Below are positions 57,464-59,053 of a stretch of 64,000 bases of DNA, one piece after another. The position numbers and the translations under genes are program-made. Each line of letters starts with the position of its first letter. The stretch's first letter is position 1. The notes beneath the pieces are model-generated. The model was not told where the DNA came from. It made no database searches and saw nothing but the letters and a program-made list of their open reading frames with translations. This DNA comes from Candidatus Gottesmanbacteria bacterium (GTDB lineage Bacteria; Patescibacteriota; Microgenomatia; UBA10105; UBA927). The stretch lies in contig JAHFKN010000002.1 of the NCBI GenBank assembly GCA_023245355.1, positions 136,460 to 200,459 of the forward strand, in the 5' to 3' direction.

Positions 57464-57629
57464 GCTCCCCCGGTAGGATTTAGTTTGGTTACAAACCACT
57501 CACCAGGAGTAAGATTCACCTCGATGACTCGGCTCATTAACTCCAGGACTGCGAACCATCGGCTCTCATTCTCCCGAAAAATAGATATAAAAAAAGGAGC
57601 TCACCGCTCCATTTTTTATATTTGCTCCG
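57464..57629 (+). repeat. 166-bp direct repeat, copy 1, ending in an intrinsic terminator
   Basis: About 92% identical to 58888-59053. Ends with the terminator at 57596-57620. Confidence 0.85.
57596..57620. terminator. bidirectional intrinsic terminator (in repeat copy 1)
   Basis: AAAAAAA GGAGC-TCACC-GCTCC ATTTTTT. Confidence 0.6.
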
Positions 57630-57760
57630 CGTATCTAGACTCATTATACCTGAAGATTACACCGAAATTATCCAAGCGTTTCAAGATTTGAGATATATTG
57701 AAGAAATGAAGCAAAGGTGGGATGAAATCAAAAGACTGCAATTTAGACATCAAACGATAG

Positions 57761-58414
57761 CTACTTAGTTGTTTCAACTAAACCTTTTTCGGTTAGCACT
57801 AGAAACCTACTATCTTCCGTCACTCTAGGCTTTAATGCTTTTAGTCCGTATTGTTTATAAAAATAATTCTGTAGCACTTTTTTGAAATCCATCAAATAAC
57901 ACGACACATTAACAGACAGCTCCCATAAAGCATCAAGTCTCGCTTCAAAACTATTTTCATCTTTGTTGTTTGCCTCTTCGGGGTCTTGTAGTAAAAATAT
58001 GTTCTGAAATTCTTCAAATACTTTGTCATTTTCTTTTTTGAAGACCAACATTATTTTTTGTAAGTCTTGGACAAATATCTCGTAACTTTCCCATTTTTGT
58101 AAAAACTTATAAAATTGAAGGTTTGTACCTACCTGCATTGTTTCATCTATCCACCTCTTTACCGCTTGTTTCTCGGTCCCAACATGCTTGAACGACTTTG
58201 TAAACTTATACGCTTGTACTTTTGAAGAAAATTCACTTATTTGACCTGCATATTTGTCTAACTCCTGAACAAGTTCTTTATAAATCTCGTGATTGATCTC
58301 GTTTTTGTGTTGTTTAGCTTGTGCGCGAATTACGAACCAATAAGTTACTAACCAACCAAGAATAGTTATCAGGAGTTCAGGTTTAGGAGTTATCCAGCTA
58401 AAGAGTTGACTCAT
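57761..58414 (-). CDS. hypothetical membrane-anchored protein (island)
   Basis: 217 aa, N-terminal TM, Lys/Glu-rich helical remainder, AT-rich codons. Confidence 0.5.
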   Translation of the reverse strand: MSQLFSWITPKPELLITILGWLVTYWFVIRAQAKQHKNEINHEIYKELVQELDKYAGQISEFSSKVQAYKFTKSFKHVGTEKQAVKRWIDETMQVGTNLQFYKFLQKWESYEIFVQDLQKIMLVFKKENDKVFEEFQNIFLLQDPEEANNKDENSFEARLDALWELSVNVSCYLMDFKKVLQNYFYKQYGLKALKPRVTEDSRFLVLTEKGLVETTK

Positions 58415-58444
58415 AAGCTTGTTAAGTCAAGTCAGACAGGGATA

Positions 58445-58855
58445 TTATTTCTTATTCTCGCTATTGGCTTGAATAATTGTTGTAATGAGATCTTTTTGGT
58501 TTTGCCAGATAGTTTGAGTAATTGATACAACTTGTTCATTTGTCATATTTTTTCCTAGCTGTTCAGCTAACCTGTTGCCTGTATTTTTTGCCATTTCAAT
58601 CAAGGCCTGCTCTCTGTCTCTTTGAATTTTTATTCTGAAATAGGCGATGAACGTAGCAATTGCTAGAAGGAGCAATCCAGCCACACCAAATATCAGCTGT
58701 TTTGTAAGATCTTTTTCTTTCAAAAAACCTAACAAAATAATCAAACTCCCTACATATGTGACTAATCCTACAATACCGAATTCTCGTAGAACCTTGATTA
58801 CGCTTAACTGTAATTGATCGATAATTTTTTCCATACCAATGAACAAAGTATTCAC
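58445..58855 (-). CDS. hypothetical two-TM membrane protein (island)
   Basis: 136 aa with two TM helices and a helical C-terminus. Confidence 0.5.
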   Translation of the reverse strand: MNTLFIGMEKIIDQLQLSVIKVLREFGIVGLVTYVGSLIILLGFLKEKDLTKQLIFGVAGLLLLAIATFIAYFRIKIQRDREQALIEMAKNTGNRLAEQLGKNMTNEQVVSITQTIWQNQKDLITTIIQANSENKK

Positions 58856-58887
58856 TTAACTTTTACTAGGTTATAGTAAGCAAATTG

Positions 58888-59053
58888 AGCTCCCCCGGTA
58901 GGATTTAGTTTGGTTACAAACCACTCACCAGGAGTAAGATTCGCTTCGATGACTCAGCTCATTAACTCCTGGACTGCGAACCGTCGGTTCTCATTCTCCT
59001 AGAAATAAATATAAAAAAAGGAGCTAATCGCTCCATTTTTTATATTTGCTCCG
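58888..59053 (+). repeat. 166-bp direct repeat, copy 2, ending in an intrinsic terminator
   Basis: Same element as copy 1. The terminator loop differs (TAATC vs TCACC) while the stem is preserved. Confidence 0.85.
59020..59044. terminator. bidirectional intrinsic terminator (in repeat copy 2)
   Basis: AAAAAAA GGAGC-TAATC-GCTCC ATTTTTT, immediately 3' of the minus-strand gene 59105-59488. Confidence 0.6.

Follow-up and report, generated by a model that had tools for sequence, protein, structure and literature searches.

Two direct repeats beside a tRNA-Asn gene of Candidatus Gottesmanbacteria: probable left junctions of tandem islands associated with a large serine recombinase

A 64,000-nucleotide stretch of a Candidatus Gottesmanbacteria contig (JAHFKN010000002.1, positions 136,460 to 200,459, assembly GCA_023245355.1), referred to here as the window, contains near its right end two direct repeats of about 166 bp that bracket two genes for predicted membrane proteins. 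What this repeat is, and how it came to stand twice at one place, is the question that the locus raises. The initial annotation had suggested a mobile 3' untranslated region (UTR)/terminator module, a small structured RNA gene, an element resembling miniature inverted-repeat transposable elements (MITEs), or the boundary of a tandem duplication. Our comparisons indicate that the repeats are very probably attL-type left junctions of two related islands, inserted successively into the T-loop of one tRNA-Asn(GUU) gene, and that a large serine recombinase (LSR) is the likely agent. Each repeat consists of a 17-nt core and a 149-nt module, and the locus is laid out as an RNHCP gene, core and module, island A, core and module, island B ending in the LSR gene, and tRNA-Asn (Table 1).

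Repeat copies and the tRNA-Asn gene

Copy 1 (57464-57629) and copy 2 (58889-59053) were 92.8% identical in an alignment of 166 columns that contains one 1-nt indel (BLASTN E = 7e-67), which gives exact limits to a repeat annotated at about 92% identity. The sequence outside the copies was unrelated on both sides, so the ends of the repeat are sharp. An exact-protein look-up led to an 81.7-kb contig of the European Nucleotide Archive (ENA; L006/L009) that was 99.97% identical to window positions 47761-64000 and extends 6.6 kb further. The whole arrangement is present in this contig at that identity, and both copy-specific junctions were matched at 100% by Logan contigs from two runs. The arrangement is therefore found again in independent assemblies, and an assembly artefact is ruled out.

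The first 17 nt of each copy, GCTCCCCCGGTAGGATT, were identical to the 3' end of an intact tRNA-Asn(GUU) gene in the ENA contig. ARAGORN called this gene (GTT anticodon) at L006 2396-2468, equivalent to window positions 68159-68231 on the minus strand, and the genes beyond it look like part of the core genome. Core 1 covers part of the T-loop, the 3' strand of the T-stem, the 3' strand of the acceptor and the discriminator. The core occurs three times, always in direct orientation; past it, copies 1 and 2 have 149 nt in common and the third site runs on as tRNA body. The block of identity ends at GGATT, inside the palindromic T-arm. The left flank of core 2 was unrelated to the left flank of core 1 or of the intact tRNA gene.

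In the window itself ARAGORN found no tRNA at the repeats and only seven Ser/Arg tRNAs at 6-13 kb. Two other origins of the 149 nt were tried and rejected: as a decayed tRNA body their similarity was at chance (scores of 15-17 vs a shuffled mean of 17), and as a group I intron remnant they lacked support, with no Intron_gpI match in the window. The Ser/Arg tRNA cluster (6128-12741) includes a tRNA-Ser with the anticodon ACT at 6676-6762, which is unusual in bacteria; the same tRNA-Ser(ACT) was called in one other locus (L058).

Relatives without an island show what the site looks like when empty. The closest relatives of the RNHCP protein are from metagenome-assembled genomes (MAGs) of Patescibacteria, at 82% identity, which places the organism in the Candidate Phyla Radiation. 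In one of these (L002) a minus-strand tRNA-Asn(GUU) lies 36 nt beyond the RNHCP gene and there is no island; another (L004) has an intron-less tRNA-Asn in the same RNHCP neighborhood, again island-free. The alignment of the window with L002 spans the end of the RNHCP gene, the spacer AATCCGTAGAAAT and the tRNA 3' end, and breaks after GGAT in the T-loop. Since the alignment runs through the tRNA 3' end, the 17-nt core is the 3' end of tRNA-Asn. The same relatives led us to reject an ancestral small RNA (sRNA) or 3' UTR downstream of RNHCP, as they have the tRNA there instead. The GC content is about 47% up to about position 57000 and about 35% from there to the end of the window, the drop falling at copy 1. 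Taken together, the intact tRNA gene, the displaced fragments, the LSR gene and the empty sites therefore point to two tandem islands at one tRNA.

Two side observations concern these neighbors. The anticodon loop of the tRNA-Asn(GUU) in L002 (GCA_023488505.1, JAMDEA010000005.1, about 10444-10800) holds a group I intron of about 270 nt (RF00028, 55.8 bits, E = 2e-13), because of which ARAGORN misses that tRNA. The RNHCP gene of the window lacks a canonical start: the TTG of relatives (GT TTG CGT CAG in L002) is CCG here and the frame opens right after a stop codon, so that the gene may be a pseudogene or a user of an unusual start.

A probable third copy lies to the left of the RNHCP gene, between it and a RibD_C gene. 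This copy 0 (Table 1) has neither the first hairpin of the module (P1, see below) nor the terminator. It was found by nhmmer (E = 3e-4), and its Smith-Waterman score of 49 was reached by none of 500 shuffles (mean 19.8, maximum 40). The covariance model missed it, and we therefore regard it as no more than a probable relic of the module. Ahead of it stands the same RibD_C upstream sequence that, in a close relative (L066), borders directly on the tRNA. If it is a relic, copy 0 suggests that at least three layers have accumulated at this hotspot and places the RNHCP gene inside one of them. The window and the linked contig (about 6.6 kb) thus hold two full copies and one relic, all at the tRNA-Asn hotspot.

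The serine recombinase and the two islands

The intact tRNA-Asn is directly abutted by a gene for a 563-aa LSR with Resolvase and Recombinase domains (PF00239, PF07508). The reading frame enters the tRNA: its last codons encode LSLLPR, and the stop codon TAG lies in CGGTAGG, within T-stem/acceptor sequence. The last 17 tRNA nt that belong to the island thus sit directly after the LSR and overlap its stop codon.

A scan with one genome per species gave 52 homologous LSR loci (L011-L062), with 36-88% identity and nearly all from Patescibacteria-type MAGs. In 31 of the 52, a convergent tRNA on the opposite strand starts where the LSR match ends or no more than about 110 nt away; of the other loci, many are cut off by the end of their contig. 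The tRNA used by close relatives is Asn; that of distant ones is Trp, Gln, Ser, Gly, Tyr, Pro or Asp. Most of the 19 LSR junctions printed have a conserved coding motif, CAAAATCYATC, immediately next to the tRNA 3' end. Searches of the flanks of the 31 loci for upstream tRNA-fragment repeats (16-nt probes, up to 2 mismatches) found none. This is an LSR family whose genes end at or inside tRNA 3' ends, with at least eight amino-acid specificities (nine anticodons). It is believed that integration into tRNA genes is the province of tyrosine integrases (PMC4383910), and we found no description of a tRNA-end LSR family in the literature. Such a family could supply integrases with ready-made conserved targets.

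Island A encodes two proteins, both with predicted membrane segments. They were 92% and 88% identical to the products of two non-adjacent genes of a cluster linked to type I restriction-modification (RM) in Roizmanbacteria islands, and nucleotide homology to that cluster was confined to these two genes. Because of this, island A looks like the outcome of decay or recombination, as far as its sequence tells, rather than a purpose-built cassette. Its membrane-protein pair is likely an RM-associated accessory or defense module. The two genes had been noted as dissimilar by eye, and they are indeed not paralogues. In the Roizmanbacteria locus L068 (6098-8654) the homologues flank a DUF4145 gene and a 290-aa gene, downstream of the M and S subunits of a type I RM system; the Roizmanbacteria islands with these homologues carry a different LSR. 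The right ends of islands A and B had no significant similarity to each other.

Island B carries defense cargo together with the recombinase (Table 1). A set like PD-Lambda-2 or gop-beta-cII (window 61226-63967 and L006 6165-9401) comprises a cII-like gene, a Beta protein and a helix-turn-helix (HTH) plus M78 peptidase gene, with a HigB toxin gene adjoining. An exact-protein look-up of PD-Lambda-2_B returned no record. The Mrr-like nuclease has 374 aa with a long coiled N-terminal part, and its gene is preceded by that of a small C4 zinc-ribbon protein (59502-60976). The pair is kept in the ENA and Logan contigs and may be a two-gene defense unit. Island B would bring a PD-Lambda-2-like, Mrr-like and HigB defense set to Patescibacteria, whose mobile elements and phage defenses are poorly known.

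Table 1. Features of the tRNA-Asn locus (positions in the window unless stated otherwise; P1 to P3 are predicted helices)
Feature	Positions	Strand	Description
Copy 0	56868-56947	+	Probable relic: decayed tRNA-Asn 3' end TGCCCCCAGATAGGATTC (56868-56885), then partial module (positions about 47-128)
RNHCP-domain gene	57025-57411	+	3' end faces core 1; immediate neighbor of the tRNA-Asn 3' end in relatives
Island A	57464-58888		About 1.4 kb, two genes, without recombinase
Core 1	57464-57480	-	Displaced tRNA-Asn(GUU) 3' end, reading GCTCCCCCGGTAGGATT on the + strand; putative attL junction of island A
Module copy 1	57481-57629	+	Left end of island A; P1 hairpin 57483-57496; P2 57503-57510/57540-57547 (A.A mismatch); P3 57553-57557/57561-57565 (A.C mismatch); palindromic terminator 57585-57621; degenerate second core TGCTCCG 57623-57629
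Island A cargo	57630-58888	-	217-aa gene 57761-58414; 129-aa gene 58445-58834 (open reading frame extendable to 58855)
Island B	58889 to about 68158		About 9.3 kb, defense cargo and recombinase; runs about 4.2 kb past the window end
Core 2	58889-58905	-	Second copy of the tRNA-Asn 3' end; putative island A/island B junction
Module copy 2	58906-59053	+	Left end of island B; P1 58908-58921; P2 58928-58935/58965-58972 (perfect); P3 58978-58982/58986-58990 (perfect); terminator palindrome 59007-59047; degenerate core TGCTCCG 59047-59053
127-aa gene	59105-59488		Island B
Mrr-like nuclease	59502-60626		Island B
Zn-ribbon protein, topoisomerase-type	60629-60976		Island B
cII-like gene	61226-61870		Island B
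Beta protein/PD-Lambda-2_C	61800-62963		Island B
PD-Lambda-2_B	62954-63967		Island B; homologue E = 4e-113
Rest of island B	Past the window (L006)		HigB, HTH proteins, small open reading frames, 563-aa LSR, then intact tRNA-Asn

The folded module at the island ends

The 149-nt module is described here on the + strand, since its structure precedes the terminator on that strand. The anatomy common to the copies starts after the core with P1, a hairpin whose sequence is free and whose pairing is kept, followed by CCACTCA and by P2, which encloses a small variable hairpin. Then come GGACTGC, P3 (GAACC-N3-7-GGTTC), the terminator and TGCTCC(G), a degenerate second core. P2 takes the form CCAG-NNN-T...A-NNN-CTGG, with the variants GAG/CTC, CGC/GCG, CGG/CTG and CAG/CTG, and in the two copies of the window it is CCAGGAGT...ACTCC(A/T)GG. 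This is the potential long-range helix of the initial annotation, which had seen better pairing in copy 2; we found it perfect there and with the A.A mismatch in copy 1, and it covaries in other genomes. Module copy 2 scored 118 bits with a covariance model that we built from the module sequences. An internal core-like repeat within the module was not significant.

The predicted terminator is the palindrome AAAAAAAGGAGC-N5-GCTCCATTTTTT, with arms of 16-18 bp made of an A-run, GGAGC, the five-nucleotide loop, GCTCC and a T-run. A consensus scan scored it on both strands in both copies (57596-57610 and 59020-59034), in agreement with the bidirectional intrinsic terminator that had been predicted from the letters. 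The compensatory changes described for its stem could not be upheld: the stem is the same in both copies and only the loop varies (TCACC vs TAATC), so that it is conserved, not compensated. It does covary in a homologue (L065), where it reads GGGGC/GCCCC.

The three helices were examined in eight sequences. In P1-P3, 94.1% of the cells pair, compared with 81.3% after shuffling (0 of 500 shuffles reached 94.1%); eight pairs have changes on both sides, and slid controls gave 23-44%. The predicted helices P1, P2 and P3 are backed by these compensatory changes, with which RNA and DNA structure both fit. A scan of 56500-60000 against Rfam, which had been proposed as a check, gave only chance-level matches (E >= 0.7), and the unit belongs to none of the 4227 Rfam families. 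The best match on the element, the patAB leader, reached 20.9 bits vs a gathering score of 92 and covers only the terminator.

A third full copy of the 166-bp unit is absent from the window. BLASTN of the unit against PLSDB plasmids and INPHARED phages gave no match, the exact 24-mer TTTGGTTACAAACCACTCACCAGG was not found in GTDB genomes, JGI metagenomes or IMG/VR, and the conserved-block pattern of the module was not found in IMG/VR. Module homologues do occur elsewhere, in six metagenomic places, and in each the module comes right behind a 3' fragment of a tRNA. One of the six (L023) has a 70%-identical module with the same core at the left end of an island, with a 55%-identical LSR about 9 kb away. 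A pattern from two conserved blocks of the module gave the five further loci. L065/L067 and L066 hold full copies and L064 a shortened one, 45 nt from a tRNA-Arg. In L063 (8088-8475) three cargo-less modules stand in tandem and directly abut a tRNA-Glu(CTC), whose 3' end supplies the core; the second and third of them begin with only the T-stem part of the core. The covariance model (R1) found no further modules in the 52 LSR loci and in 10 loci with homologues of the island A cargo.

Locus L066 belongs to an organism closely related to that of the window. The right flank there was 92% identical to ours and the module only 78%, and the module is therefore not orthologous host DNA. Here a RibD_C gene alone separates the module from tRNA-Asn (8531-9419), forming a 0.8-kb unit without a recombinase; this RibD_C is only 72% identical to that of the window (56217-56810). 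Judged from these comparisons, the 149-nt module is island DNA that travels with an element family.

Proposed mechanism, alternatives and known systems

The mechanism that we propose starts with an LSR that would integrate a circular element into the T-loop of the tRNA. The element's own 17 nt would rebuild the tRNA at the right end, and the native 3' end would remain at the opposite, left extremity, joined to the module. A related second island would then use the rebuilt tRNA and push the first outward, after which island A would have lost its recombinase. The first 25 bp or so of the module would be the P' half of attP. For island B the expected attP junction of the circle is ...AATCTATCTCT-GCTCCCCCGGTAGGATT-TAGTTTGG..., and the expected restored attB is CCGTAGAAATT-GCTCCCCCGGTAGGATT-CGAACC. 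In the integrated state the terminator would stop minus-strand island cargo from reading out and the convergent RNHCP gene from reading in. Excision to a circle would bring the module directly behind the LSR stop codon, as the 3' UTR and terminator of the LSR mRNA. An unexplained repeat would in this way be resolved into two precisely delimited mobile islands.

Several points weigh against this proposal. Neither integration nor excision was seen, nor a circular form. An LSR as a rule requires no more than a 2-bp crossover and has quasi-symmetric half-sites, and the conserved motifs that flank the core here (CAAAATCYATC on the left, CCACTCACCAG on the right) lack symmetry. Island A contains no recombinase remnant and its right end meets core 2 cleanly, unlike what is expected of a random deletion; the L066 unit likewise ends cleanly at the next core without a remnant. 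Each module is followed by a degenerate core. Copy 0 lies left of the RNHCP gene, yet the adjacency of RNHCP and tRNA looks ancestral (L002, L004), a combination that simple outward accretion leaves unexplained. None of the other LSR loci, with flanks of up to 10 kb, gave a module match to the covariance model, and the module is therefore not universal in the LSR family. As for a role as RNA, wobble counts favor neither strand (3 G.U on the + strand vs 3 that would be G.U on the minus strand), and neither copy has a promoter-like (sigma-70-like) site upstream.

These last points bear most on the alternative in which the 149-nt module is first of all a gene for a small structured RNA or an sRNA derived from a 3' UTR, with P1-P3 and the terminator on the + strand and a regulatory role of its own, merely riding on islands. 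This is possible, though we consider it doubtful. It is compatible with att-type junctions and moves the function from DNA to RNA; the fold is kept between sequences of no more than about 70% identity, P1 and P2 showing compensatory changes, the terminator follows the structure, the single-sequence fold of copy 2 has z = -3.85, and there is no conserved coding frame (the minus-strand frame 57382-57537 is stopped in copy 2). On the other side, a DNA or single-stranded DNA structure would give the same inverted-repeat covariation, the left neighbor differs at every site, no shared promoter-like motif was seen by eye in the copies and homologues, and Rfam, as reported above, offers no family. The related idea of a mobile 3'-UTR/terminator module survives in so far as the unit appears mobile, carries a terminator and marks boundaries. 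Each copy does lie 3' of a gene on the minus strand, as annotated (131 nt separate copy 1 from the stop codon at 57761, and 51 nt separate copy 2 from that at 59105); a minus-strand 3' UTR does not fit, as in that direction the conserved 110 nt come only after the terminator. If an intergenic segment with a terminator had been duplicated locally in tandem, or multiplied by unequal crossing-over, without site-specific recombination, this would account for two direct copies of such identity 1.4 kb apart. Such an origin is very improbable: neither the DNA between and after the copies nor the two bracketed genes are paralogous, each copy starts exactly at the tRNA-Asn 3' end with a third core in the intact tRNA beside a recombinase gene, and in other genomes this module accompanies different cargo. 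We give as little weight to a MITE-like non-autonomous transposable element with a terminator. The unit is short, non-coding, repeated, structured and AT-rich at one end, but it lacks terminal inverted repeats (the GCTCC at both ends is direct, not inverted, and the sole inverted repeats are the terminator arms) and has no target-site duplication besides the tRNA piece. Its two or three copies in the window and linked contig are all at one tRNA hotspot, and every homologue found follows a tRNA 3' fragment.

The recombinase-less units call for a different comparison, with an integron-like cassette array in which units of module, one or two genes and a tRNA core are mobilised in trans by the LSR and the folded module serves as recombination site. 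Such units are island A (1.4 kb), the RibD_C unit of L066 (0.8 kb) and copy 0 with RNHCP; cargo-less modules stand in tandem at tRNA-Glu (L063) and also at tRNA-Arg (L064), the right ends of units meet the next core cleanly, and the module conserves structure over sequence, as attC sites do. Against this, the island A genes appear as a deletion or recombination derivative of the larger RM-linked cluster on other LSR islands, which points to decay, and the internal junction has P-core-P' geometry, which by the known rules of LSR synapsis should not pair with attL. Neither circles nor an empty-vs-filled polymorphism were seen, and an LSR is expected to need only one 17-nt core and about 25 bp. 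The clean ends, the degenerate cores and copy 0 are the reasons why we keep this reading, at a low probability. A little less improbable, and still unlikely, is that the folded 110-nt module is a functional partner of tRNA-targeting LSRs, either as an excision-coupled RNA of the LSR 3' UTR or as a structured site for stacking recombinase-less units. If so, an RNA made only from the excised circle would couple LSR expression to the excision state, or units of module, cargo and tRNA core would form an integron-like array driven by a serine recombinase.

Successive insertion at one tRNA-Asn, which we prefer, has clear parallels. In tRNA- and tmRNA-gene islands with the Islander signature, a regenerated tDNA with displaced fragments is the classical mark, and tandem arrays arise through reuse of the regenerated site (PMC4383910). 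Our locus is like them in the intact tDNA at one end and the displaced 3' fragment in direct orientation at the other, in the recombinase gene beside the tDNA, in the restoration of the gene by the island, in the presumed crossover region in the T-stem/T-loop and in the tandem array. It differs in that the recombinase on board is an LSR and not the tyrosine integrase that Islander requires, and in that the older island has no integrase. The repeat also runs 149 nt past the tDNA fragment, because the two islands have a structured end module in common. Among tycheposons, 27 of 937 carry an LSR, and successive integrations push older elements outward (bioRxiv 10.1101/2020.12.28.424599). The outward stacking at one tRNA, the partial tRNAs and degenerate remnants, and the adaptive or defense cargo are likewise found in these Prochlorococcus islands; a conserved folded terminator module is not described for them (bioRxiv 10.1101/2020.12.28.424599). 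Our host belongs to the Patescibacteria, and no tycheposon hallmark replication genes are present in the part seen.

Accretion of cis-mobilizable elements (CIMEs) is known from the integrative and conjugative elements ICESt1 and ICESt3 of Streptococcus thermophilus, which are conjugative and insert, by means of tyrosine integrases, at the 3' end of fda. There, too, an att-flanked segment without recombinase stands beside a complete element, which is explained by accretion followed by loss of the recombination module; here the recombinase is a serine one and the target a tRNA, and cis mobilization of island A is hypothetical. LSRs of the phiC31, Bxb1 and TP901-1 type have mostly protein-coding targets and quasi-symmetric sites of about 40-50 bp. 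Our LSR has the same Resolvase and Recombinase domains, its gene lies beside the attachment site, and the orientation fits unidirectional integration. In contrast to those phage enzymes, the target is a tRNA T-loop, the LSR frame enters the tRNA, and a conserved fold of about 110 nt lies by the presumed P' half-site.

The module itself can be set beside two other elements. Like integron attC, it is an element of about 60-150 nt associated with a recombination site, conserved in structure and variable in sequence, that bounds short promoter-poor cassettes; unlike attC, it has no IntI tyrosine recombinase, its ends show neither R''/L''-L'/R' inverted repeats nor a GTTRRRY core, a tRNA anchors the array, and a terminator is part of the unit. 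The bridge RNA or seekRNA of IS110/IS1111 is a structured non-coding region of about 150-180 nt at the element end by the recombination junction. The likeness is in position only, in that circularization would change the transcriptional context of the module; the recombinase family differs, no loops complementary to target or donor were found, and the sequences of P1 and P2 do not track the tRNA target. Tandem tRNA islands are a known architecture. What is unusual here is a serine recombinase family for tRNA targets and a new structured end module, conserved, non-coding and supported by covariation, for which a terminator or insulator, a recombinase 3' UTR and a recombination accessory site are the candidate roles.

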